Positions 506-41,399 of a stretch of 41,399 nt of DNA are shown here, one piece after another (position 1 is the first letter of the stretch; each line of letters starts with the position of its first letter). The stretch comes from a virus. Below the pieces are notes generated by a model. The model had not been told where the DNA came from and did not search any database. It worked only from the letters and a program-made list of their open reading frames with translations. The DNA lies in IMG/VR virus record IMGVR_UViG_3300032007_000176, positions 1 to 41,399 of that record, one strand, 5' to 3'. A program made the translations under genes and the position numbers.

Positions 506-1186
506 CTACCGCACATCGTTCTCGATGAAGTCCGACCATTGCACGGCCATTGCATGTGCGATGCCTTGAAACGTCTTCGATGCGTCCTTTGCTGTGTGAG
601 CCACACCGCGTGACCACTTCTGACCCTTCTTGCGCCCTCCCGTGTTCGATGGCAGGAACGTCTGATGGTCTCCGCAGAAGAGTGTCGGCATGAGTGGCGG
701 CAGGTTCTTCAGCCAAAGGTAGGTAGCCTTGCTGAATGGGTCGCCAAACTCATACGGCTGTACGATGGTGGATGGTTTCGGCAGTCCGACGATGGCAAGC
801 GGTCGGGGGTTCTCGATGGCGATGTACTTGCACTTGGCATCGTGCATCTTGAAGAAAAACGCCTTGGCTTCCATTGCCAGTTTCAAACGTTCCTCTGACA
901 GCTGCCCTGCTTTCGGGTACATCCATCGTGCGCCAGCCTTCGACATGTAGGTGCAAGGCGGGTGTGCCACAAGCAGCTGCCACTCGCCCTGCTGTCGGTG
1001 CCGCTTTCCGTCTTGCGTCGTAAATTCGCAGTCGCCATTCAGCAACGGCAAGCAATCGCCCACGACGTGCCATTCAGGATGACCGCCGCTGCATTCTTGC
1101 AAGTCGGCAGAGAAGGCTCGGTGTCCGAGTGCTCGGAATGCCTTGCAAACCGTCTGGCTTTCCTCGCAGGCTATCAGTACGTTCAT
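506..1186 (-). CDS. DNA (cytosine-5)-methyltransferase, compact phage type
   Basis: 226-aa ORF. It has a catalytic Pro-Cys motif (LLVAHPPCTYMS) and an ENV-like motif (YIAIENPRP). The N-terminal VLIACEESQTV...GH and C-terminal QPYEFGDPFSKATYLWLKNLPPL layout resembles small phage C5-MTases. Confidence 0.75.
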   Translation of the reverse strand: MNVLIACEESQTVCKAFRALGHRAFSADLQECSGGHPEWHVVGDCLPLLNGDCEFTTQDGKRHRQQGEWQLLVAHPPCTYMSKAGARWMYPKAGQLSEERLKLAMEAKAFFFKMHDAKCKYIAIENPRPLAIVGLPKPSTIVQPYEFGDPFSKATYLWLKNLPPLMPTLFCGDHQTFLPSNTGGRKKGQKWSRGVAHTAKDASKTFQGIAHAMAVQWSDFIENDVR

Positions 1187-1188
1187 AA

Positions 1189-1286
1189 ATCTTACATCTT
1201 ACATCTTACATCATACTTGCGCCAATGGGCGCACCAGTCCCCACTCCGCGAACTTCTCGAATCCGCCGAGGGTGTGGATGTAGAGC
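1189..1286. repeat. 98-bp direct repeat, copy A (partner at 40027..40124)
   Basis: Hand alignment gives 95/98 identical bases in the same orientation. The repeat covers the heptamer array, a stop codon and the last 24 codons of a MetK-like C terminus (LYIHTLGGFEKFAEWGLVRPLAQV). Confidence 0.9.
1191..1211 (-). repeat. Heptamer array (ATGTAAG)x3 on the coding strand, site A
   Basis: The plus strand reads cttacat three times in tandem. The array fills the gap between the stop of ORF 1211..1351 and the ATG of the methyltransferase. Confidence 0.9.
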
Positions 1287-1351
1287 ACCGGCGTATCCAG
1301 CTGACTCAGCAGATACTCCTCCATTGTCTGTTGTTCTTCTTGCTTTGCCAT
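1211..1351 (-). CDS. 46-aa chimeric small ORF: unique N terminus plus a MetK-tail remnant
   Basis: Below the track size cut-off. Reads MAKQEEQQTMEEYLLSQLDTPVLYIHTLGGFEKFAEWGLVRPLAQV. The last 24 aa are encoded by repeat copy A. Whether it is expressed is uncertain. Confidence 0.35.
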   Translation of the reverse strand: MAKQEEQQTMEEYLLSQLDTPVLYIHTLGGFEKFAEWGLVRPLAQV

Positions 1352-1394
1352 AGGTCTATTCTTTACTAACATTTCCGAAATTCTTTGCTAAGAA

Positions 1395-11675: not shown

Positions 11676-11759
11676 TGGCGAAATTGGGCGAAATCGGTGT
11701 ATTTTAGCTATTTTGTTTTACCTATGTTTTCCCCTTCGAAAAGAGGGGAAAACAAAAAA

Positions 11760-12926
11760 ATGAAGATTATGACAACAGTGAACATTGTTTATGACCGCAA
11801 AAACCTGCGCAGAGAGCTGGCTCCCATTGAGATTCGCATCACGCACGAGCGGCGCTCCTTATATATAAATACAGGCGTGCGCGTGCGGCGCGAGCAATTC
11901 GCCTACGACCGCATCGTAAACCACCCGCAGGCGGAGGAACTGAACGAGCGCATCAATATATTGCTGCAACGCACCATCGAGGCCGTGAATGCACGATTGA
12001 AAGACAAACGGGAAATAAGTGTTTCTGAAATAAAAAGGGAAATAGAGAACGGCACTTCGAACAGCGTGCTGGCGTGGATCAAGACGGAAGCCAAGCAAAT
12101 CAACATCAAGCCAGGCACGGCGAAGCATTACGTGACGTTGCAGACGCGGCTGGATGAATTCGGCGGCATTCAAACGTGGCAGGACGTGACGGTGGCGAAC
12201 ATCTACGCATTCGACGCATGGCTGCGTGAGCTTCCCGGCAAGCGCACGAAGATGAGCGAGGCGGGCCGCTACAATTACCACAAGTGTCTTCGCTCGCTGC
12301 TGAATCGCGCAGTCAAGATGGAGCTGCTGACAGCCAACCCCTACGCAAAGATGCGCGGGGAAATCGGGAAAGGCGAGCGGGAAAACATGGAATATCTCGC
12401 GGACACAGAAATCGAGAAGCTGCTGAAGTTCTCGCCGTGCGAAGGCTCTGAGCTGGCTCACGCCCGAGACCTGTTCGTCTTCCAGATGTACACTGGCCTC
12501 TCGTACTCAGACGCGCAGGCATTCGACTTTTCGGCCTACAAGAAGGTGCGCGGCACTTACCGACTGACAGCCGAACGCATAAAGACGGGCGTGCCTTTCG
12601 TCTCGCAGTTGTTGCCTCCGGCGGTGGAAATTTTGGAAAAATACGGCTGGCGGGTGCCACGAATGAGCAACCAAGCGTACAACCGCGCGCTGAAGCAGGT
12701 GGCCACAGCTGCCGGCCTTTCGGTGCGCCTGCACTCGCATCTTGCACGTCACACGTTTGCCACATACATGCTCAGCAACGGCGTGGCCATCGAGAACCTC
12801 TCGAAGATGCTCGGGCACACTAACATCACACGCACCCAGCGTTACGCCAAGGTGCTGGCCGAGTCGGTGCACAGCGACTTCGAGATGATTGCAAGGAAAA
12901 TGAAAAAGAAAAACGCGAAAGCCTAA
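11760..12926 (+). CDS. int: Tyrosine recombinase / phage integrase
   Basis: The track ORF is trimmed to MKIMTTVNIVYD. The C-terminal catalytic region LHSHLARHTFATYML...LGHTNITRTQRYAKV supplies the HxxR and Tyr motifs. Size and N-terminal arm-binding layout match Bacteroidota phage and ICE integrases. Confidence 0.9.
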   Translation: MKIMTTVNIVYDRKNLRRELAPIEIRITHERRSLYINTGVRVRREQFAYDRIVNHPQAEELNERINILLQRTIEAVNARLKDKREISVSEIKREIENGTSNSVLAWIKTEAKQINIKPGTAKHYVTLQTRLDEFGGIQTWQDVTVANIYAFDAWLRELPGKRTKMSEAGRYNYHKCLRSLLNRAVKMELLTANPYAKMRGEIGKGERENMEYLADTEIEKLLKFSPCEGSELAHARDLFVFQMYTGLSYSDAQAFDFSAYKKVRGTYRLTAERIKTGVPFVSQLLPPAVEILEKYGWRVPRMSNQAYNRALKQVATAAGLSVRLHSHLARHTFATYMLSNGVAIENLSKMLGHTNITRTQRYAKVLAESVHSDFEMIARKMKKKNAKA

Positions 12927-27330: not shown

Positions 27331-27583
27331 CTCCACCTTCAGGTATAGGAGGCTCTTCCGGCTCCGGCTCGATAGCCCTCAGTCGCTCAATTTCTGCGTT
27401 GGCCGCATTGATGTCGTCGCGCCACTGCTGACGCTCGGCTATCTTGTCGGCATATTCCGTCTTGGTGGCCTTACCTTCCGCAATCTTGGCGGCGATATAA
27501 TCGGTGGATGACAGTTTGCCCTCGCGGTCGAGGATGATACTCTCCTGGGCGTTGATAGCCTCGTTGATTTCTGCTTGTTTCAT
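27326..27583 (-). CDS. Hypothetical coiled-coil protein
   Basis: 85-aa ORF that overlaps the RT stop by 4 nt. Confidence 0.5.
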   Translation of the reverse strand: MKQAEINEAINAQESIILDREGKLSSTDYIAAKIAEGKATKTEYADKIAERQQWRDDINAANAEIERLRAIEPEPEEPPIPEGGE

Positions 27584-28815
27584 ATTCGCTTCAATTTTAG
27601 TTTGTACTTCTTACATAATCTCTGGCGAAATGTGTGCTGGGGTTTACTGACGACGCATTGACGGCGGGTGTCCCAGTCCAACCACTGCCACCAATCATCA
27701 GCGATAGTGTCTTTCAGTTGCATGATACGCTTGTATGATGTGCGGTTCTTCAGTAGTCCTGTGTATGAGTTTACGGTCGAAATAAAACGGTCGAGTTCTC
27801 TGTATTTCTCGACCGTTGTCAGTTGGTTGTATTCTTTTATTCTCGCCAAACATCGTGCCCACGTTACATCATTCAATATCACGCTCCAGGGATGGATGTG
27901 CGAGCCGAGAAATTCCAGTCCCTTCCAGTGTTGCTGACAATAGAATTTCTTATCATTCATCCTTACGCCTTTTACAGCCAGTCTTCTGCGCAGTTCAGGC
28001 AACAGACTGAGTGCATAAGGCTTCAATCTATCGGGTACCACCATCACGCCATCGTCCATGAATACCGTGGTACGGATACCGCAATCTTCGTTGAGCCAAA
28101 TAACTTCGTCATTAATGTATAGACCCATGCCTGTTTGCGATGACATACGACCAATCGGCACACCTACGCCATCGGGTTTGTTCAGAATAGACTTTTCGGG
28201 TTTGATATGCGCATCCCAAAGATACTTGGGTGTGCGCCTCTCATAGTGCTTTGCAGGGTAACAATGAATTGCTATCATTGCCAGCCATTTCAGGAACGCC
28301 GGCATGAATACTCCATATTTTTCGGCTATCTCATCATGGAAGCGGTCTATCACGCGAATGAAGCACGACTCCATATAGTCGCAGTCGGCATTCGGGAAGA
28401 ATCCCGCCAAGTCCCACTTGATAATCCATGTCGTTTCGGTGTAGCCGTTGCTCACCTCGCAGATGTCTTCTATCACCTGGTTAATAGCTGCCTGCGAACC
28501 CATACCCTCGCGGTTGTTGAAGGTGCGCGGGTGTAGCGTCTGTTCTATCCACGGCTTCAGAATGTCACAAAGGATATGGTCAATCATACGACCGGCGAAC
28601 TCAGTGGCGAATATCTCGCGCCACTTAGGAATGGAAACGAGGAAGGTGTAGTTGTGGAGTATGCGGAACGTCCTTGCATTGAGCTCGCGCATCAAGCGAA
28701 CAAGTAGTGGTGGCCAGTTCATCTCAAAGGCCATCGAATCACGCCCGTAACGCTTGTTTTTCCGCGTGGAAAACATCACGCTGAGCAACAGCGCGAAGAA
28801 CAAAACCTCAGTCAT
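27580..28815 (-). CDS. DGR reverse transcriptase
   Basis: IPKWREIFATEFAGRMIDHIL, the PIGRMSSQ (IGxxxSQ) motif typical of DGR RTs, and an FMDD catalytic box. The gene starts 23 nt after the TR. The exact start Met is uncertain. Confidence 0.9.
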   Translation of the reverse strand: MTEVLFFALLLSVMFSTRKNKRYGRDSMAFEMNWPPLLVRLMRELNARTFRILHNYTFLVSIPKWREIFATEFAGRMIDHILCDILKPWIEQTLHPRTFNNREGMGSQAAINQVIEDICEVSNGYTETTWIIKWDLAGFFPNADCDYMESCFIRVIDRFHDEIAEKYGVFMPAFLKWLAMIAIHCYPAKHYERRTPKYLWDAHIKPEKSILNKPDGVGVPIGRMSSQTGMGLYINDEVIWLNEDCGIRTTVFMDDGVMVVPDRLKPYALSLLPELRRRLAVKGVRMNDKKFYCQQHWKGLEFLGSHIHPWSVILNDVTWARCLARIKEYNQLTTVEKYRELDRFISTVNSYTGLLKNRTSYKRIMQLKDTIADDWWQWLDWDTRRQCVVSKPQHTFRQRLCKKYKLKLKRI

Positions 28816-28837
28816 AAAAGTAAAAGCTAAATATCGA

Positions 28838-28964
28838 TAAAATCGCGACCGCCTGACAACGATTCGTGTTGTTGATGTTGTTGTTGTTGAGATTGCCGTT
28901 GTTGCCGTTGAAATTCCACGCGTTGTTGACGTTGTACCTCTGAGCGAACCAACGGTTCGTGCTG
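28838..28964 (-). repeat. DGR template repeat (TR)
   Basis: It aligns without gaps to 29545-29671 over 127 bp. All 27 differences fall at TR adenines on the coding strand. In the VR frame it encodes about 16 AAY codons. Confidence 0.9.
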
Positions 28965-29046
28965 GTCGGAGTCACATCTGATGCTGCTATACATGATAGC
29001 CGGGCTCCCTTTTACCTTATTCATATCTGACAGCCACCTCTTGTCA

Positions 29047-29460
29047 TTACTGACCGACCTGCGGCTGATCCTGACGTTTAAGCGACCGGCTCGCATTTCT
29101 CCATTTCCTTACACCTTCCTCGACACGTTCCAACTGCACGGCGATACGCAGTTTATCGCTATCAGTCAGCAGTCCCTGCGCGATACACAATTCAAAGTTA
29201 GCTAACAATATACCGAACTCACCTATCATCTCACGGATGTGTTCCTGCCTCGCCTCCTGGCATTCCTTGGCGATAGAGAAATGTCGGATGATATTCTGTA
29301 CCGCCCGCTTCATCTCTACCGGTGCGCCTTCGATGCGTTCTATCTTCGGCATCCGTTGGATGGCGGGATGTAATATATAAAGCAAGTTCTTTGCGTCAGC
29401 GAGAATGGAGTCCTTGTCATTCTTCGCCTTGTTGCCGCGCGGTTTCTTGTGTTCATTCAT
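29047..29460 (-). CDS. avd: Avd-like DGR accessory protein
   Basis: Trimmed to MNEHKKPRGNK. 137 aa, basic and predicted helical. It sits between the target gene and the TR. Confidence 0.7.
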   Translation of the reverse strand: MNEHKKPRGNKAKNDKDSILADAKNLLYILHPAIQRMPKIERIEGAPVEMKRAVQNIIRHFSIAKECQEARQEHIREMIGEFGILLANFELCIAQGLLTDSDKLRIAVQLERVEEGVRKWRNASRSLKRQDQPQVGQ

Positions 29461-29491
29461 TGTTCTAAAGAAGGATAGATTGATAGTAAGC

Positions 29492-29520
29492 CTCACGCCA
29501 CGCTGTCGCGATGGCGTGAG
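29492..29520 (-). promoter_or_regulatory. Hairpin/cruciform immediately 3' of the VR
   Basis: A perfect 9-bp inverted repeat (CTCACGCCA with TGGCGTGAG) and an 11-nt loop. It starts 13 nt after the target stop codon. No U-tract follows and there is no counterpart after the TR. Confidence 0.55.
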
Positions 29521-29532
29521 AGCATTTAGTTT

Positions 29533-30852
29533 CTAATCAATTTCTAAAAGCGCGACCGCCCGACAACGAAACGTGCCGGAGATGTAGCTGGTGCTGAGAG
29601 AGCCGTAGGAGCCGCGGAAAAACCACGCGGCGTAGACGGTGGACCTCTGAGCGAACCAACGGTACGTGCTGTTGTTCACTGCGGTAGTTCCCATCTTACT
29701 GATACTTGGCGCAAGGGCAGTGAGGGTTTCATCCTTCATCAGCATGGTGCCCTCGGCGACGCCTGGCAGATACCAGTCACCAAAGTCGAGACCATCCACA
29801 CCGAACGACTTGGTGTAGCCGTAATAGAGTGCTGGGTACTTGTACTTCGTGCCGCCTGCCTTAGTGGGAGCCGTCATGCGGGCATATTTCTCAGCCATAG
29901 CCTTGCCGCTGGGCAGTGAGAAGCATCCATACTTCTGAGGATATACCACCATGTAACACTTCTCCAGATATTCCTCGTAGGTGGCATAAGCAGCACGCAG
30001 GTTGGCGCAGAACTCGCTTGTCTCGAACTCTGACGGCTTCACGGGCACATCATTACCGGCACGTGGACCTACGGGTTCTTGCGCTGTTGGCACACGACCG
30101 CTACCTGTAGCCCATGCCTTGGTTCTGGCGATGTTCATCACACCCCAGTAGTTGGTGTAGCAGCCTCGCTCGCCGCGCCAGTACGTCGAATTTTCTGGCA
30201 TGTCACCCCATGTGATATGAGCGATAGTGCAACCTGTTGCGCTGACAATATAGAAGCGATAGTCAACACACTGATCACACTGGATGATAATCTGAGTACC
30301 GTCACTCTCCACTTTGTTTCCGTTGGCATCAGCCAGATATGCCCACCATGCCTTTATGTCGCCTACCTGCGTGGCCTTCGCAGCAACAGCGGCTGAAATT
30401 TCAGCAGCGCTTGTGGCGTTGATGGCAGCTGACGTCAGTGTTACATCTACGGTGGTATCTACGGCATAGTCAGGAGACATACGCAACTTAATAGCCAGTG
30501 TGGTGCTGCTGATAGCAGTAATGGCATACTGACAAACGTCGAGCCACTTCTGGTCGGCACCATCCTTGTGGATAATACCCACCTGTCGACCCTTACGGAA
30601 ATAGACATAACCGACGTGCGTCCATGCAGCGGGGATGTTTGCCTTCTGAATCCACACACCACCCTTCACGTAGATGATCTTGTTCTGGTCGTCAAGGAAC
30701 ACCACATCGCCAACGGTAGGCTGTGTGGTAACGACATTCACACCGTCCACGATGATTTCGCGGGTTGTCTCAATCATGCTCACCTGACTCTCGGTGATGG
30801 GCTTCACGGCTGCATCGTAGTCAGCCTTGCTGTTGTATGATTTGATAGCCAT
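29533..30852 (-). CDS. DGR target protein, putative receptor-binding tail protein
   Basis: 439 aa. The C-terminal ~42 codons are the VR (...STYRWFAQRSTVYAAWFFRGSYGSLSTSYISGTFRCRAVALLEID). The gene directly follows two fibre-like genes. Confidence 0.85.
   Translation of the reverse strand: MAIKSYNSKADYDAAVKPITESQVSMIETTREIIVDGVNVVTTQPTVGDVVFLDDQNKIIYVKGGVWIQKANIPAAWTHVGYVYFRKGRQVGIIHKDGADQKWLDVCQYAITAISSTTLAIKLRMSPDYAVDTTVDVTLTSAAINATSAAEISAAVAAKATQVGDIKAWWAYLADANGNKVESDGTQIIIQCDQCVDYRFYIVSATGCTIAHITWGDMPENSTYWRGERGCYTNYWGVMNIARTKAWATGSGRVPTAQEPVGPRAGNDVPVKPSEFETSEFCANLRAAYATYEEYLEKCYMVVYPQKYGCFSLPSGKAMAEKYARMTAPTKAGGTKYKYPALYYGYTKSFGVDGLDFGDWYLPGVAEGTMLMKDETLTALAPSISKMGTTAVNNSTYRWFAQRSTVYAAWFFRGSYGSLSTSYISGTFRCRAVALLEID
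29545..29671 (-). repeat. DGR variable repeat (VR)
   Basis: See the TR entry. The VR lies inside the 3' end of ORF 29533..30852. Confidence 0.9.
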
Positions 30853-32567: not shown

Positions 32568-33242
32568 TTACAATCTGATGATCAACTCAGCCGTTTCCTC
32601 GTCGTAAATGATGCGCTGCACCTCTTGCTGAAGTCCGCGCACGGTCAGGATGCCTGTCTCTGGGTTAAACGACATCGTAGGGAACAGCATGCCACCACTC
32701 GGACCTTCGGGGCCTTGTTCGCCCTGTTCTCCTTGCGGGCCTTGTTCACCCTGTGGGCCTTGCGGACCGACGGGGCCTTGTTCACCCTGCGGGCCTTGTG
32801 GACCGACGGGGCCTGGGTCGCCCTTGTCACCCTTCGTCCAGTACGGAGGTATCTCACTCGTTACGGTGGGAGCGGTGCAACCGTCGAAGCCCAGCACCAC
32901 GTTCATCTCCACTTCCACGCCATCCACCTCTTCCTTGATGATGACCGACGTTGGCTCAATCACCTCGTCACAGATGCCGCTCTGGTAATGCTCATCGGTG
33001 AGGTAGTAGCGACGCTCCACCATGAGCGTACCGACACCAAGCTTGTGGTCGTCAAAACCGACACACAACCTTCCGTCACCATCCACCTCGCAGTTCGTGT
33101 ACTCGTGGCCGTCAAAGGTAGCCACCCATGCTTGCTTGGGGTTCGCCGTGTAGTACGTGAACTTAAACGGCACCCCGAATCCGGCATCGCTCTGTTCTAC
33201 GAGCCGGAAATCACTCTGATAGAATATCTTCTTTGTTTCCAT
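32568..33242 (-). CDS. Collagen-like repeat tail fibre protein
   Basis: A Gly-X-Y run reads [48 protein letters not shown]. It is encoded partly by a 36-bp tandem duplication at 32737-32808. Confidence 0.7.
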
Positions 33243-37170: not shown

Positions 37171-37697
37171 ACGTCCGCCTCCATGTCTATTTGTCTGATG
37201 CGTTCCTCGCAGATGTGGATAATCTTCTCATAGTCCAGTCGGCGGCTGTCGCCCTGCTTGGTGCGCAGGATGCGCTTCACGATGTCAGCGTCCCACGGGT
37301 TCAGGTTGTAGTCCTGCCATATCGTCCACGGCTGGATGATGTGGCGCGAGTAGTCGCTTGCCCCACGATTGTATGAGCGTACCGACGTGTCGAGAATGCC
37401 CAGCCTGCTGAATGCGTTGTAGGTGTCCTCGTCGAGCAGTCGGCTGTTCACGGTGTCGGGGACTTGTGCCTCTTCGGGTGCTGCCTCTTGCAATTCTGCG
37501 TTATCTTCAATGATGAACATTGTGATGCCGTCCTCAGCTGTTACGACATATACGTTTTGTTTGCCGTCCCAAAATTGGAACACTACCCGCAGCGAGTGGG
37601 TGTAGTGTTTGTCTGGGTCGGCTGGTGTTGTGATGTAATCGATGGTGCCTGGCTTGATTCTCAGCAGGTCGCCAATGTTAAATGCGTATCCGTGCAT
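37167..37697 (-). CDS. DUF3310-domain protein
   Basis: Trimmed to MHGYAFNIG, which has the GGAACTATG context. The C-terminal DYSRHIIQPWTIWQDYNLNPWDADIVKRILRTKQGDSRRLDYEKIIHICEERI resembles DUF3310. Confidence 0.55.
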   Translation of the reverse strand: MHGYAFNIGDLLRIKPGTIDYITTPADPDKHYTHSLRVVFQFWDGKQNVYVVTAEDGITMFIIEDNAELQEAAPEEAQVPDTVNSRLLDEDTYNAFSRLGILDTSVRSYNRGASDYSRHIIQPWTIWQDYNLNPWDADIVKRILRTKQGDSRRLDYEKIIHICEERIRQIDMEADV

Positions 37698-37720
37698 AGT
37701 TCCTTTAATTTTCTTCGTTG

Positions 37721-37761
37721 ATAAAAAAGCGGAGAGGCACCCCGATAGATGATGCCTCTCC
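37721..37761 (-). terminator. Intrinsic terminator
   Basis: On the minus strand GGAGAGGCA pairs with TGCCTCTCC (9 bp, 13-nt loop). GCTTTTTTATC follows. Confidence 0.65.
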
Positions 37762-37830
37762 AGTGATGCGCCAGTATGCAAGGGACAAAGCCTTGCAAGT
37801 GACGACTTGGGATGCGTCCATCCCCGCGTT

Positions 37831-38184
37831 TCAATAGTTCTCGTTATGGCTGCCGTCCTCGTTGTAGCTGCTTTCAAAACTTGAAGCACTGAATGGTCGG
37901 TAGGTCAGTTCCAGTTGTCCGTCGTTGAATGCTTCGGCAAACATGTGGTACTTCCCGCAGCCGTTATATTCGGGGTCTGCCTTGTGCTTGTCGTATGCCT
38001 CGGTCAGGATCTCGCGTGACACGGCGATGATTTCATCCACCGAAGGCGTGTGGCGTTCGTCTCCGCCTTTCAGCCCGTACCACTTAACGCCCATCAATAC
38101 CATGATGGCTTGCACTCTCTCAAAGTCGAAGTCGCAAAGGATTTCATTTACCATTGCGTCTCTTTTTCTGTTGTCTTCGTTCAT
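37831..38184 (-). CDS. Hypothetical protein
   Basis: 117-aa ORF with the GGAACTATG start context. Confidence 0.55.
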   Translation of the reverse strand: MNEDNRKRDAMVNEILCDFDFERVQAIMVLMGVKWYGLKGGDERHTPSVDEIIAVSREILTEAYDKHKADPEYNGCGKYHMFAEAFNDGQLELTYRPFSASSFESSYNEDGSHNENY

Positions 38185-38223
38185 AGTTCCTTATAAATTC
38201 GTTCAATTCGTTCAATTCGTGTT

Positions 38224-38256
38224 CAAAACGAAGAGAGCCGACACCCGTCAGCCCTC
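38224..38256 (-). terminator. Intrinsic terminator abutting heptamer array C
   Basis: The minus strand reads GAGGGCUGAC-GGGU-GUCGGCUCUC (10 bp including 2 G-U pairs) followed by UUCGUUUUG. Confidence 0.55.
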
Positions 38257-38283
38257 TTACATCTTACATCTTACATCTTACAT
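38256..38283 (-). repeat. Heptamer array (ATGTAAG)x4, site C
   Basis: The plus strand reads cttacat four times in tandem. The array begins 8 nt after the stop of the HU-like gene. Confidence 0.9.
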
Positions 38284-38291
38284 CCCGAAGG

Positions 38292-38696
38292 TCATCCCTC
38301 CAGCTCTCCGCCAGTCGTACCGCCGCCCTGGTTGCCACCTTGGCCAGCGCCACCCTCGGTGATGTCCTCCTCGCCAGATGCAGCGGCAGCAGCCGTCGGG
38401 TCAACCTTCTGCCAACTCACCTCGTCGGAGAACTGGCGGCTGAACTTGGCGGCTACGGTGCAACCCAGTCGGCTCCGTCCGTTGGCAGCGTTCAGCATCT
38501 CGGCGGTTGCCACGATCGGCGCATGAGTCTCGGGGTCTTCGGTGTCCTTCACGCTCAACTGGATGTTGGGATAGACGGTCAGGAAGTTGTCGCCCAGCTG
38601 ACAGCGGAAGCCTTTCAGCACGTTGCGCTTCACGGCCTTCATGAACTCCGTCACGCAAGCCTTGGCGATTGATGGTTCAACACTCTTGCCGTCCAT
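38292..38696 (-). CDS. HU-HIG-like protein, paralogue 2 (probably extends to about 38810)
   Basis: The track ORF starts at an internal Met. The same frame is open back to 38813 and encodes (EIA)KVKYYAKENSTIGTHSFYAVPIPNGTLTFDELLDEA, a typical HU-HIG N terminus with no in-frame ATG, GTG or TTG. The tail is GGAGQGGNQGGGTTGGELEG. Confidence 0.55.
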   Translation of the reverse strand: MDGKSVEPSIAKACVTEFMKAVKRNVLKGFRCQLGDNFLTVYPNIQLSVKDTEDPETHAPIVATAEMLNAANGRSRLGCTVAAKFSRQFSDEVSWQKVDPTAAAAASGEEDITEGGAGQGGNQGGGTTGGELEG

Positions 38697-38843
38697 AGCC
38701 TCGTCCAGCAGCTCGTCAAACGTGAGCGTGCCGTTGGGGATGGGTACGGCATAGAAGGAATGAGTTCCGATAGTGGAATTCTCCTTGGCATAATACTTAA
38801 CTTTTGCTATTTCTTATCCGATTTAAAGGGTTTAACGAAATAG

Positions 38844-38902
38844 TTTACTATACTAAACCGCAGCGGTTTTGTATAGCAAACCGCAGGGCTTTACTATACT
38901 AA
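38844..38902. promoter_or_regulatory. Operator-like triple repeat
   Basis: tttactatactaaaccg (38844-60) is followed by its imperfect inverted copy cggttttgtatagcaaa (38864-80, 15 of 17 bases). A third direct copy, tttactatactaa, lies at 38890-38902. Confidence 0.45.
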
Positions 38903-38957
38903 CGTAATGCGGTCGGGGGTTTACTCGGTTGCGATGGCTGATGGATGAGGGATGGGG

Positions 38958-39362
38958 TCAGAGGTCTGCGACCATCTCTTTGACGTAGGCTTCCATCATG
39001 TCGTGGAATGAGCCAGCGAACTGCTCTTTGAACTTGATGGTGCCACCGCTTATCTCCATGTCAACGTAGCTGTTGAGAAAGCCGATGCCGTACTTCTTGC
39101 AGATGGGTCGCATTTCGTCACGGAAGGCTTGGATGCGTTCCTGAATGTTGAACACCTTGGCACGTTCCTCACGCTTGCCGTAGTCGTAGCCTTTCTTAAA
39201 ACCTTCTTTGGCAAAATGGGCTGATACACTTTCAAGCGTTGCATCGTATGGGTCACGGAAGTAACGTCTGCATCCACTCTTTATTTCTTCGCCATACTGA
39301 TTCATGGCATTCTTTGCGCCTTCAGTCATGCCGATATTGCGCTTCTTTCTTTTCTTGCTCAT
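38958..39362 (-). CDS. Hypothetical protein
   Basis: 134-aa ORF with the GGAACTATG context. Confidence 0.55.
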   Translation of the reverse strand: MSKKRKKRNIGMTEGAKNAMNQYGEEIKSGCRRYFRDPYDATLESVSAHFAKEGFKKGYDYGKREERAKVFNIQERIQAFRDEMRPICKKYGIGFLNSYVDMEISGGTIKFKEQFAGSFHDMMEAYVKEMVADL

Positions 39363-39754
39363 AGTTCCTGTAATTGTTTAAGTAAATCTTTCGTTTCCTT
39401 GATGCACCAATCGCGGTCGAGGTGCGGCCCGTCATCGAAGTGCATGGTGTCGAAACCGAACACCCAATAGCCCTTGGGTATTTCGTCGAAGTTGTCGAAG
39501 TCGATGCACTCCGTATCGTTGCGCCATCCGTCGGCCTTGATTTCCTCAATCGGCTCACCAAACGTCAGCCCGCCGTGAATGTCTATCACGTTGTTGGCTT
39601 CGTCGTAGTGCTTGCCATGAAGCGGATGCTCTGGCGGTACTGCGACGTAGCCGTTAGCATAACCCACACCGATTGAGCATCGGTGCAAAACGTCGGACTC
39701 AGCGAAACGCTTGTTTACTGAGTTGTTCAAAAATGCAAATAATCTCTTCTTCAT
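39359..39754 (-). CDS. Hypothetical protein
   Basis: 131-aa ORF with the GGAACTATG context. It contains a GYVAVPPEHPLHG...IHGGLTF...WVFGFDTMH motif block of unknown function. Confidence 0.55.
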   Translation of the reverse strand: MKKRLFAFLNNSVNKRFAESDVLHRCSIGVGYANGYVAVPPEHPLHGKHYDEANNVIDIHGGLTFGEPIEEIKADGWRNDTECIDFDNFDEIPKGYWVFGFDTMHFDDGPHLDRDWCIKETKDLLKQLQEL

Positions 39755-39760
39755 AGTTCC

Positions 39761-40024
39761 TTATTCGTATTGCTTAATCAGTCTTTGTAACTCTTGCACC
39801 CGATTCGACGTGATTGCTTGCACGAACTTGATGATTTCGTTTGGGTCGTCGTCAGGTCGGATGCGGTACTCTTCGGCAGTCCCGTCCATGAACTCAATGC
39901 GCAAACAGCCCTGCTTGAATGGCTTACTCTGCATCTTATCCATGAGGTTGGCGTGCCGTTGCATTTCCTCGACGTGCATCCGTCTGAGGAATGGCGGTAT
40001 CTCTTTTCTCTCTTCGTCAGTCAT
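39761..40024 (-). CDS. Hypothetical protein
   Basis: The track ORF is trimmed to MTDEERKEIPP. The first six track codons are the heptamer array itself. Confidence 0.5.
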   Translation of the reverse strand: MTDEERKEIPPFLRRMHVEEMQRHANLMDKMQSKPFKQGCLRIEFMDGTAEEYRIRPDDDPNEIIKFVQAITSNRVQELQRLIKQYE

Positions 40025-40026
40025 AC

Positions 40027-40124
40027 ATCTTACATCTTCCATCTTACATCATACTTGCGCCAATGGGCGCACCAGTCCCCACTCAGCGAACTTCTCGAAG
40101 CCGCCGAGGGTGTGGATGTAGAGC
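40027..40124. repeat. 98-bp direct repeat, copy B (partner at 1189..1286); includes heptamer array site B
   Basis: 95 of 98 bases match copy A. The array at 40022-40049 reads catacat, cttacat, cttccat, cttacat. Confidence 0.9.
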
Positions 40125-40234
40125 CTTGCCTGTTCCACGATGTCCTTATACGGGATGCCGTTCACGGTTTCATCACCGATGGAACACGATGCGGTCACCT
40201 GATGACCCGTGCGGATGCTCTCCAAGTAGCACCT
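40049..40234 (-). pseudogene. Remnant 3' end of a second metK-like gene
   Basis: A 61-codon open frame with no ATG reads ...IRTGHQVTASCSIGDETVNGIPYKDIVEQARLYIHTLGGFEKFAEWGLVRPLAQV. It parallels the intact MetK C terminus ...VQSGQTVTACCSIGDEHVTFQ...FADVVEMARLYILTDCNGSFETFSEWGLIRPKE. Confidence 0.6.
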
Positions 40235-40239
40235 TTAGA

Positions 40240-40260
40240 GTCCCCCGCAAATCGGGGGAC
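40240..40260. other. GC hairpin
   Basis: GTCCCCCG-caaat-CGGGGGAC, a perfect 8-bp stem with no flanking U-tract. It lies between ORF 40278..40574 and the metK remnant. Confidence 0.5.
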
Positions 40261-40277
40261 GGCTATAATGCAGGGGG

Positions 40278-40574
40278 CTAAAGTTCGATGTATTCGTGAT
40301 TAGAAATCCATTCCTGCGCCTTGGTCGTTGACTTAAAACGCTTTTGAATCTCATGCCGTTTTCCGTTGCATGTGACAACGACAAAGAAGTGTCCTTTCTC
40401 CAATTTCTTGATTTCGGCACTTTCGACCTTCATGCCTTTTGGCTTTGTCACAACCTTAACGGGTTCAACTACTGGAGCAGGCTTTGGAGCCGGTGCTGGT
40501 TTTGACTTGTACGATGCAACGTACTTTCTTGCTTCCGCTAACTTTGCGTCGGCCTTTCTCATTGATTTCTTCAT
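40278..40574 (-). CDS. Hypothetical basic protein
   Basis: 98-aa ORF with a Lys/Pro-rich N half. Confidence 0.5.
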   Translation of the reverse strand: MKKSMRKADAKLAEARKYVASYKSKPAPAPKPAPVVEPVKVVTKPKGMKVESAEIKKLEKGHFFVVVTCNGKRHEIQKRFKSTTKAQEWISNHEYIEL

Positions 40575-40603
40575 AATTCGTTTAATTAGTTAAATTCGTG
40601 TTC

Positions 40604-41399
40604 TTATTCTTTCGGTCTAATTAAGCCCCATTCGCTGAAGGTTTCAAACGAGCCGTTGCAATCGGTCAAAATGTAAAGTCTTGCCATTTCCACCACGTCG
40701 GCAAACGTCTCGGTCTCGGTCTTGCCGCTGGCATATTGGAACGTCACATGTTCGTCACCAATCGAACAGCAAGCCGTCACCGTCTGCCCAGATTGCACAG
40801 CCTTCAGGAATGCGACGATATTGATAGAAACATCTCCCTTTGAGAGATCCTTTCCCATCAAGCCACCTCCTGTTACTCCCTCGCCAAGGTCGCTTCCAAG
40901 TTTCCTGTTAGTCGCTCCGCTGTCCGTGTTCGGTCCGCCCGTCCACTCGCCCAGGGGATTGATGATGGGCAGGTGGATGCCGTAGGCGTTCTTCAGATGC
41001 TCACGCAGTTCCGGTTCCTGCTCACGGCTCAGATGGCTTTGGCAGATGGTGACGTCGAACTCCGGCGCAGCCAGTCGGCCTTTGCCCTGGATGATGTACT
41101 TGCCGTCGAACGGGTGCCTGTCGTAGATGCTTGCGGCAATGGCCGTCAGCAGCTTCTGCTCATGCGTCGGGGGCACACCACGAAAAATTCCGTTATCACC
41201 ACATCTCACCCCATGCTGCTGATTGGCAGCCAGGTGAATGTCTTGCGGCACGATGAGCGCACGCGTCTCGATGCCCTCACCGGCAATGCGGCTCACGATG
41301 GCCTCGATGTCCTCCGCGCTGATCCGCTCGCTCGTTTCCACTTGGATGTTGCACTCGCCGTGACCGATGAGCACCTCACAGGCCACCTTCGGGTTGGCT
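40604..41399 (-). CDS. metK: S-adenosylmethionine synthetase (compact MetK-like), C-terminal part, continuing into 472..1
   Basis: INPLGEWTGGPNTDSGATNRKLGSDLGEGVTGGGLMGKDLSKGDVS parallels E. coli MetK [30 protein letters not shown]...GGGAFSGKDPSKVDRS. Confidence 0.8.
   Translation of the reverse strand, partial: ANPKVACEVLIGHGECNIQVETSERISAEDIEAIVSRIAGEGIETRALIVPQDIHLAANQQHGVRCGDNGIFRGVPPTHEQKLLTAIAASIYDRHPFDGKYIIQGKGRLAAPEFDVTICQSHLSREQEPELREHLKNAYGIHLPIINPLGEWTGGPNTDSGATNRKLGSDLGEGVTGGGLMGKDLSKGDVSINIVAFLKAVQSGQTVTACCSIGDEHVTFQYASGKTETETFADVVEMARLYILTDCNGSFETFSEWGLIRPKE
41083..41399. repeat. Terminal direct repeat, copy 2 of 2
   Basis: Identical to 1..317. Confidence 0.9.

Follow-up and report, generated by a model that had tools for sequence, protein, structure and literature searches.

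The locus examined here raises the question of why a heptamer made of a start codon, a stop codon and one further base, ATGTAAG, is repeated in tandem at the gene junctions of a phage. The stretch analysed, hereafter the window, comprises the 41,399 nucleotides (nt) of IMG/VR virus record IMGVR_UViG_3300032007_000176. The answer that we favour, with roughly even chances of being right, is that the array is a frame-proof linker and recombination joint of a portable gene-end and terminator cassette, built on a slippage-prone heptanucleotide repeat.

Exact ATGTAAG occurs ten times in the window, always on the minus (coding) strand; 2.9 copies are expected, and none of 100 dinucleotide-preserving shuffles reached ten. 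Nine of the ten are in three tandem arrays, designated A, B and C (Table 1), which lie in the order A, C, B along the coding strand within about 4 kb of the circular genome. Period 7 was reported at all three by Tandem Repeats Finder (TRF), and this, together with the exact matches, places each of them among the heptanucleotide long simple-sequence repeats (LSSRs), which are defined by head-to-tail 7-nt units in at least three copies. The tenth copy is a singleton (27610-27616) within the reverse-transcriptase gene. An exact-motif search of the window found no inverted copy of an array.

The arrays are closely fitted to the ends of genes. The first base of array A is the last base of a TGA codon (1213-1211), which is itself contained in a degenerate preceding unit, AAGTATG (1212-1218); on the other side, only ATTT, a gap of 4 nt, separates the array from the ATG at 1186 of a DNA methyltransferase gene (phrog_757). 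Array C likewise starts on the last base of a TGA (40051-40049), and the downstream open reading frame (ORF) starts within the array, with its ATG at 40024 or 40042. Array B begins 8 nt past a TGA (38294-38292) and runs into an 11-bp terminator-like hairpin. In A and B, every frame contains both TAA and ATG. Array C has TAA in just two frames; the remaining one is stopped by the junction TGA, after which it is read as the downstream ORF. It should be mentioned that A and C are the 3' ends of the two copies of one 104-nt direct repeat, which means that the window contains two independent occurrences of the array, not three. An earlier note, made from the sequence alone, had reported arrays at these three sites, each just after a stop codon, two of them near the next ATG and the third at a terminator hairpin; on these points it was right. 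Its statement that the motif was found nowhere else holds for arrays but overlooked the singleton, and its claim of TAA and ATG in every frame applies to A and B but not to C.

Array B is the one array set in a full copy of the cassette; the other two copies are partial. It is flanked on one side by a predicted small hairpin and on the other by the terminator-like hairpin, the latter sharing the last 2 nt of the array. The terminator-like hairpin is predicted to be more stable in the sense than in the antisense direction (-18.8 vs -11.2 kcal/mol), and a 113-nt region around array B has a predicted minimum free energy of -39.8 kcal/mol (z = -3.3). The array itself seems to be poor in structure: its unit contains no C, and the predicted mean unpaired probability is 0.56 for array B against 0.40 for its surroundings, and 0.56-0.65 for the three arrays against 0.38-0.43 for their context. 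The flank of about 24 nt on the left, GGAGCTGGAGGGATGACCTTCGGG, is the commonest class, preceding 77 of 141 arrays, and it is found also where it is non-coding (loci L017 and L023). The pairing of the small hairpin is poorly conserved in flank variants, for example CCGAAGGG and CCCATCGGG. By eye, the left flank could also be paired with the 3' arm of the terminator-like hairpin to give a small antiterminator, but this is not the fold predicted. Beyond the hairpin, the T-rich tail is variable in relatives (TTCGTTTT, TTGTTTTT, TTCTTTTT), and ACGAATT-type 9-mers, also variable, are found in most of them as an optional part of the cassette. A sigma-70 promoter scan gave no site beside any array, and no Bacteroidota-type promoter motif (TAnnTTTG or TTTG) was seen by eye at the cassette. 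The 134-residue ORF upstream of array B gave no credible match in a PDB sequence search.

Further evidence comes from relatives of the window. A scan of IMG/VR for three exact ATGTAAG units found 21 stretches, 14 of which are phage relatives with the same cassette. When the 23-nt core of the hairpin was sought instead, with or without an array, it was present in 19 stretches of IMG/VR and in at least 119 from metagenomes, most of the latter contigs being from few sample series. The hairpin is present in 114 distinct contexts. The number of heptamer units 5' of it is zero in 4 contexts, one in 1, two in none, three in 26, four in 57, five in 15, six in 8, seven in 1 and eight in 2. In other words, 109 of the 114 contexts carry three to eight units, and wherever an array is present, bar the single one-unit case, the minimum is three. 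Exact ATGTAAG makes up 80% of the units of the family (378), followed by ATGGAAG (43), AAGTAAG (10), ATGTATG (9), AAGTATG (8), AGGGAAG (8) and rarer forms; ATG is lost in 7%. The variation is concentrated at positions 2, 4 and 6 of the unit, and A1, G3, A5 and G7 are nearly invariant. Pairs of loci with the same flanks differ in the number of units (eight in L175 and seven in L278; five in L171 and four in L257; four in L234 and six in L260), which is a signature of slippage.

The arrays also join sequences of different origin. When the 141 distinct arrays are sorted by the 24 nt on their left, about 36 classes result; sorting by the right flank gives 18. Two left flanks predominate, one ending in '...GGELEG* CCTTCGGG' and the other in '...WGLVRPLAQV*', as do two right flanks, the hairpin and 'ATTT-ATG...', and all four combinations exist (array B; arrays A and C; L016; L013). 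The hairpin directly follows 124 of the 141 arrays, and in A, C, L013, L158, L168 and L213 the array is a few nt before a start codon. Unrelated upstream ORFs stop within the array at offsets 3, 5, 10 and 17, which cover all three frames. Examples are L175 and L278 (GGC GGG GGT AAG ATG TAA) and a gene resembling S-adenosylmethionine (SAM) synthetase, the TGA of which lies inside AAGTATG-ATG. Of 109 family arrays, 76 contain internal stops in every frame and 97 have an ATG in every frame. Blocks of homology between the window and its relatives, as found by BLAST (basic local alignment search tool), end at 1182-1197, 40015-40035 and about 38180-38311. Longer contigs carry two or three cassettes per 2-4 kb, which invariably point the same way as the accompanying groups of one to five small genes. 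The position at cassette boundaries, the link to recombination and the use of the all-frame stop, which had been proposed from the window by itself, are supported by the many flank classes joined through the arrays, by homology blocks ending at them, by the relic gene fragments flanking A and C, and by ORFs ending within them; all-frame stops are nevertheless confined to part of the family. No support emerged from the analysis for a regulatory effect, be it on expression or through binding of a protein or sRNA.

The heptamer can be replaced. In other relatives the same left flank precedes (AGTGAAG)3-4, an array without ATG but with TGA in every frame. This second heptamer module continues into AATTTGCT[A/T]CCGC and occurs in both orientations relative to genes (for example at L021 1717-1745, L275 1075, L236 3631 and L152 5752-5773). 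In L150 and L155, the orthologous site after the 134-residue gene has CACGGATTT 9-mers 5' of a different hairpin. Across about 570 kb of family loci there are 188 heptamer arrays against three of 8-mers and one of 10-mers, a ratio biased by the way in which the loci were retrieved.

These features might be explained as follows. (ATGTAAG)n would be a slippage-generated simple-sequence repeat of a kind common in Bacteroidota and their phages. It would make up the 5' part of a gene-end cassette, portable and about 60-110 nt long, in which the array is followed by a sense-strand-specific terminator hairpin, a T-run and optional 9-mers; such cassettes seem to be spaced every 0.6-1.9 kb through the accessory-gene region of temperate rumen phages. 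The array would be the joint between unrelated upstream genes and the cassette. As the length of the unit is not divisible by three, any reading frame that enters an array of at least three units will be closed, and the structure-poor array may also separate the terminating ribosome from the hairpin. A perfect repeat of 21-56 bp would, in addition, offer short homology for exchange from phage to phage and from site to site, with changes of copy number as a by-product. Arrays A and C could then be scars of exchange, each of which retains the array with about 80 nt of the former gene end but has the start of a new gene where the terminator half had been. We infer that exchange proceeds through the array, and that a role as all-frame stop or spacer keeps arrays at three or more units. 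A stop or linker is preferred here to functions based on ATG because the lower bound of three units is the number that covers three frames, and because the alternative AGTGAAG keeps the all-frame stops without ATG. If this is correct, a microsatellite does structural work in phage genome evolution: a terminator cassette can be joined to any gene end, and the array supplies short homology for the swapping of accessory genes. It would also give a sequence-level handle on mosaicism in the abundant, little-studied phages of Prevotella and other Bacteroidales.

Several points weigh against this reading. At least one frame is without an internal stop in 33 of the 109 arrays, and ATGGAAG accounts for 9% of the units. 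Since the ORF before most cassettes ends at a stop of its own, the all-frame stop is usually redundant. The relatives were selected for containing the exact hairpin or array sequence, and they may all be recent descendants of one four-unit ancestor; such descent would give a narrow range of copy number and an apparent conservation without selection. Some breakpoints coincide with the right-hand edge of the cassette or precede the 24-nt left flank; in other words, the array is not the sole joint. Among the window ORFs scanned, none was recognised as an Erf-, RecT- or Sak-type recombinase.

The motif is not restricted to the phage family. (ATGTAAG)3 was found in at least 120 bacterial genome stretches, about 89 of them from Bacteroidota as counted from record titles. 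These include many rumen Prevotella and Bacteroidales metagenome-assembled genomes (MAGs), and also Saprospiraceae and Flavobacterium. The bacterial arrays are part of runs of related heptamers (for example ATGCAAG, ATGTGAG, AAGTAAG and ATGTCTG) and reach 18 exact copies; some are followed by reverse-complement arrays, giving long hairpins. Among the matches listed, about 85% are intergenic according to a crude ORF caller; 71 have a long upstream ORF in the same direction as the array and 40 in the opposite one. In about 37 of 120, no more than about 13 nt separate the start of the array from a co-directional stop, and only 8 of 113 are followed by a hairpin that is terminator-like under strict criteria. 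With the last count, the idea that such arrays generally precede terminators in bacteria was abandoned. In control scans of IMG/VR, 35 stretches contained (AATAGTG)3, whose unit matches ATGTAAG in base composition, and 70 contained (AGTGAAG)3, compared with the 21 of (ATGTAAG)3; the stop-free (ATATGGA)3 was the rarest control heptamer (6 stretches). All of these counts are far above chance for a 21-mer, so that heptamer arrays are common as a class. The control heptamers overturned the notion of ATGTAAG as an unusually favoured unit. The motif is not unique: heptanucleotide repeats of many sequences abound in the genomes of Bacteroidota and in phage contigs. Heptamer arrays at gene junctions across Bacteroidota seem to be a broader, barely described feature.

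A rival explanation is that the arrays have no function. Replication might stall at the hairpin, and slippage might then make 7- and 9-nt duplications that hitch-hike with the terminator cassette, their codons being incidental; the arrays would be an ordinary microsatellite. Tandem repeats are indeed present on both sides of the hairpin, 7-mers 5' and 9-mers 3', and in L150 and L155 the 9-mers even replace the heptamers. Copy number and unit sequence vary freely, arbitrary heptamers form arrays in phage contigs as often as ATGTAAG or more often, and the bacterial contexts are varied, in both orientations and rarely before a strict terminator-like hairpin. A neutral by-product would not, however, be expected to show so sharp a lower cut-off (no context with two units and one with a single unit, against 26 with three and 8 with six), to keep its exact sequence in four-fifths of the units, or to accompany the hairpin in nearly all of its contexts. 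The bacterial arrays that start next to a co-directional stop and the rarity of the sole stop-free control heptamer point the same way. We regard neutrality as unlikely. A second rival is a switch operated by protein on RNA. The HutP site consists of three NAG triplets separated by 4 nt (period 7), and HutP and TRAP sites generally contain at least three short purine triplets at fixed spacing, near a terminator or over a start codon. In the arrays, AAG recurs every 7 nt, which fits the NAG-N4 spacing, so an oligomeric host or phage protein might bind the unpaired (AAG-N4)n and modulate the terminator in arrays of the B type and translation initiation in those of the A and C types. The position directly 5' of the terminator, the minimum of three units, the near-invariance of A1, G3, A5 and G7 and the predicted lack of pairing between the two hairpins are in accordance with this. 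In addition, terminators follow one another in co-directional gene clusters with no recognisable promoter after them, which implies regulated or partial read-through. Yet the units, and even the period, are replaceable in relatives, where another heptamer or 9-mers hold the same position; the array is scattered across many unrelated bacteria without terminators; and it enters the predicted terminator stem by only 2 nt, leaving the GC core free, so that binding would not obviously block the folding of the hairpin. A scan of about 50 window ORFs against PHROGs and Pfam, incomplete and with host proteins outside its range, recognised no HutP, TRAP or other RNA-binding family. Such a switch seems to be the least probable of the explanations considered.

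The codons themselves might serve a further function. Every ATGTAAG unit is an AUG directly followed by a stop codon, and start-stop minimal ORFs of this kind bind ribosomes and mildly attenuate translation of the host gene in Escherichia coli (Meydan et al., bioRxiv 10.1101/520783). Ribosomes of Bacteroidia that are blind to the Shine-Dalgarno (SD) sequence might be captured by the AUG-UAA units, which could act as a decoy tuning the gene 0-4 nt downstream (A and C), as a relay for re-initiation, or by parking a ribosome over the 5' arm of the terminator (B type). SD sequences are hardly used by the phage (a correctly spaced SD-like motif precedes 10 of 50 genes against a background of 14.5%, and leaders are A-rich), which fits a Bacteroidota host; translation in Bacteroidota starts without SD, so accessible AUGs should matter. 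ATG is present in all three frames in most arrays, and the array AUGs have A at -3 and -2, where the methyltransferase start has U. Where the last unit is ATGGAAG, a short ORF runs to a TGA in the 5' arm of the hairpin (ATG GAA GAG GGC TGA). In Bacteroidetes, AUG is normally under-represented at -21 to -1 of start codons (PMC6847099), which makes an AUG-rich leader unusual, and immediate stops would be the least harmful outcome of spurious initiation (bioRxiv 10.1101/520783). On the other hand, (AGTGAAG)n without ATG is found at the equivalent junction, some units have lost their ATG, and serial initiation and termination would probably be too slow to affect co-transcriptional folding of the hairpin. 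The sites in E. coli are single, intragenic and preceded by an SD-like sequence, not tandem, intergenic or all-frame. Capture of ribosomes is very doubtful, if marginally more credible than the protein-operated switch. A more specialised form of exchange can also be envisaged, in which the array-hairpin unit and its sister unit, (AGTGAAG)n-AATTTGCTNCCGC, are the recombination sites of a dedicated cassette-exchange system of rumen Bacteroidota phages. This would be a functional analogue of integron attC sites or of the stem-loop cassettes discussed below, by which phages swap single accessory genes, the array guaranteeing a stop for any gene that lands upstream. We consider such a system doubtful, less probable than neutrality but ahead of the two functions just described.

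Phase variation by frame-shifting was also considered and discarded: the array is never inside a sense ORF, and a change of copy number alters neither the upstream stop nor the downstream start.

The earlier note knew of no described element of this form, but all-frame-stop heptamers before start codons have been published. TAACTGA direct repeats are known from marine Beggiatoaceae, Cyanobacteria and a few Bacteroidetes (MacGregor 2015, PMC4679880). They are tandem and intergenic, with 2-6 copies and up to 43 in some genomes, and a role in post-transcriptional regulation is proposed for them but unproven (PMC4679880). In forward orientation they give stops in three frames at the ends of ORFs, as do arrays A, B and most of the family arrays, and most of them are a few nt before a start codon, like A and C but unlike most family arrays, which precede the hairpin instead. 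Their unit, however, has two stops and no ATG. They form a chromosomal network of about 170 sites, whereas the element described here is a phage cassette, and they are associated neither with a terminator hairpin nor with evidence for mosaic joints.

Among prokaryotic LSSRs, those with heptanucleotide units are the most frequent class, and their origin is attributed to polymerase slippage (Mrazek 2007, as cited in PMC4679880). As far as that account describes them, LSSR heptamers and the heptamers of cyanobacterial short tandemly repeated repetitive (STRR) sequences share with the present arrays the period of 7, the intergenic bias, the instability of copy number through slippage and the many units per genome. 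Copy-number polymorphism and a spread over lineages together with other units, both of which mark LSSRs, were found here as well. LSSRs are, in the same account, a generic mutational class, whereas the array is tied to one conserved hairpin at gene-cassette boundaries. The promoter-early stem-loop (PeSL) cassettes of T4-type phages are conserved terminator and promoter units that mediate modular shuffling, for which short-homology recombination is proposed (PMC2839356, PMC4122927). They too are small terminator stem-loop cassettes, repeated in variable-gene regions and placed at the boundaries of indels and replacements between close relatives. In contrast to the present cassette, with its microsatellite and no recognised promoter, PeSLs join a recognisable early promoter and have no microsatellite. 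They belong to large T4-like myoviruses of Proteobacteria, and the phage described here is a probably temperate one of 41 kb. The element thus belongs to neither the TAACTGA nor the PeSL family, and combines features of both.

The 104-nt repeat carrying arrays A and C encodes the last approximately 25 residues of an allele of the SAM-synthetase-like gene, so that the ORFs of 53 and 58 residues upstream of arrays A and C are relic 3' fragments. In relative L266, the homologues of window positions 41262-40818 and 40233-40053 are contiguous according to BLAST. This means that the SAM-synthetase-like gene of the window is interrupted by about 585 nt, and that copy 2 of the repeat is the displaced original 3' end of the gene. 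Full-length genes with the 3' end of the repeat, the array and the hairpin are found in L016, L163, L236 and L256. The 260-residue ORF between the two copies matches S-adenosylmethionine synthetases weakly but consistently (PDB E about 0.004; Pfam S-AdoMet_synt_C E 0.09). No Pfam match at E <= 0.01 was found for the ten flanking ORFs, and at E <= 10 the only one was the weak S-AdoMet_synt_C match. The SAM-synthetase-like gene adjoins the DNA methyltransferase gene, and two relic copies of the 3' end of another allele persist there.

Table 1. Positions of the arrays, of the cassette around array B and of other features in the window.
Feature	Positions	Strand	Remarks
Array A, (ATGTAAG)x3	1191-1211	-	exact match and TRF
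Array B, (ATGTAAG)x4	38256-38283	-	exact match and TRF
Array C, ATGTAAG ATGGAAG ATGTAAG ATGTATG	40049-40022	-	x4 with two variant units; exact copies at 40029-35 and 40043-49
Left flank of array B, CTGGAGG-GATGA-CCTTCGG-G	38284-38303	-	predicted small hairpin with the upstream TGA in its loop
Terminator-like hairpin, AGAGGGCUGAC-GGGU-GUCGGCUCUCU	38232-38257	-	predicted; 11 bp including 2 G-U pairs
T-rich tail, TCGTTTT	38225-38231	-	
9-mer tandem repeat, GAACGAATT x2.8	38196-38220	-	TRF; between the terminator and the next gene start at 38184
104-nt direct repeat, copy 1	1183-1286	-	last ~25 codons of a SAM-synthetase-like allele (...LYIHTLGGFEKFAEWGLVRPLAQV*) and array A
104-nt direct repeat, copy 2	40021-40124	-	96% identical to copy 1; includes array C
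Relic ORF upstream of array A	1211-1372		53 residues
Relic ORF upstream of array C	40049-40225		58 residues
SAM-synthetase-like ORF	40604-41386		260 residues; phrog_1569 match; diverged paralogue between the two 104-nt repeat copies
Terminal identity	1-317 and 41083-41399		
Tyrosine integrase (phrog_1)	11697-12926	+	sole long gene on the plus strand
Diversity-generating retroelement	27580-30852	-	
Retroelement reverse transcriptase ORF (phrog_1423)	27580-28815	-	
Retroelement template repeat	28838-28964	-	
Retroelement variable repeat	29545-29671	-	3' end of ORF 29533-30852

The ends of the window are identical (positions 1-300 equal 41083-41382 in a repeat comparison), which means that the genome is circular or terminally redundant, with a length of about 41,082 bp. 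In view of the integrase gene, the phage is probably temperate. It also carries a diversity-generating retroelement, in which all 27 mismatches between the template and variable repeats are at template adenines; a T4-like gene set is absent among the scanned ORFs. A distant blastn search of INPHARED phage genomes with a 3.3-kb region found no relatives; the matches cover only about 110-310 nt at 68-75% identity and concern the SAM-synthetase-like gene, in phages of Oscillospiraceae and Ruminococcus. An Rfam scan of 37600-41399 gave nothing beyond sub-threshold miRNA noise, and a scan for tRNA and tmRNA genes found none.

A sequence close to the cassette was found in a rumen Bacteroidales MAG (RUG14814; locus L108, positions 128-230), where a glycine-rich ORF end and TAACCTTCG are followed by (ATGTAAG)x4 and immediately by a start codon. 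Its identity to window positions 38255-38339 is 78% across 86 nt, and the first residues of the ORF after the array resemble, as judged by eye, a lipoprotein signal peptide. To judge from the sequence, this locus is a possible link to the host or to a prophage. The near absence of SD usage, the A-rich leaders and this match of flank and array are consistent with a Bacteroidota host, as the earlier note had assumed. A recurrent context, AAGGAACT-ATG, is seen at gene starts (for example at 38184, 39362, 39754, 4857 and 20604), with AGGA 3 nt from the ATG; it looks like a phage-specific or Kozak-like initiation context of an SD-blind host. Use of SD sequences by the host, which had been proposed from this context, was rejected, since AGGA is just 3 nt before the ATG and SD-like motifs are at background.

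Two further regions of the window should be mentioned. The intergenic region of 260 nt at 38697-38957 contains a 23-bp repeat (x2.6, 38844-38902) with a match to a sigma-70-like promoter. A block of 123 nt in the same region (38714-38836) recurs in many related contigs, sometimes twice per contig, with 88-99% identity (mostly 94-99%); it may be a conserved non-coding element. Collagen-like Gly-X-Y repeats with periodicities of 9, 18 and 36 nt are present at 32700-32840, in an ORF of 224 residues (32568-33242, minus strand) that adjoins structural genes.

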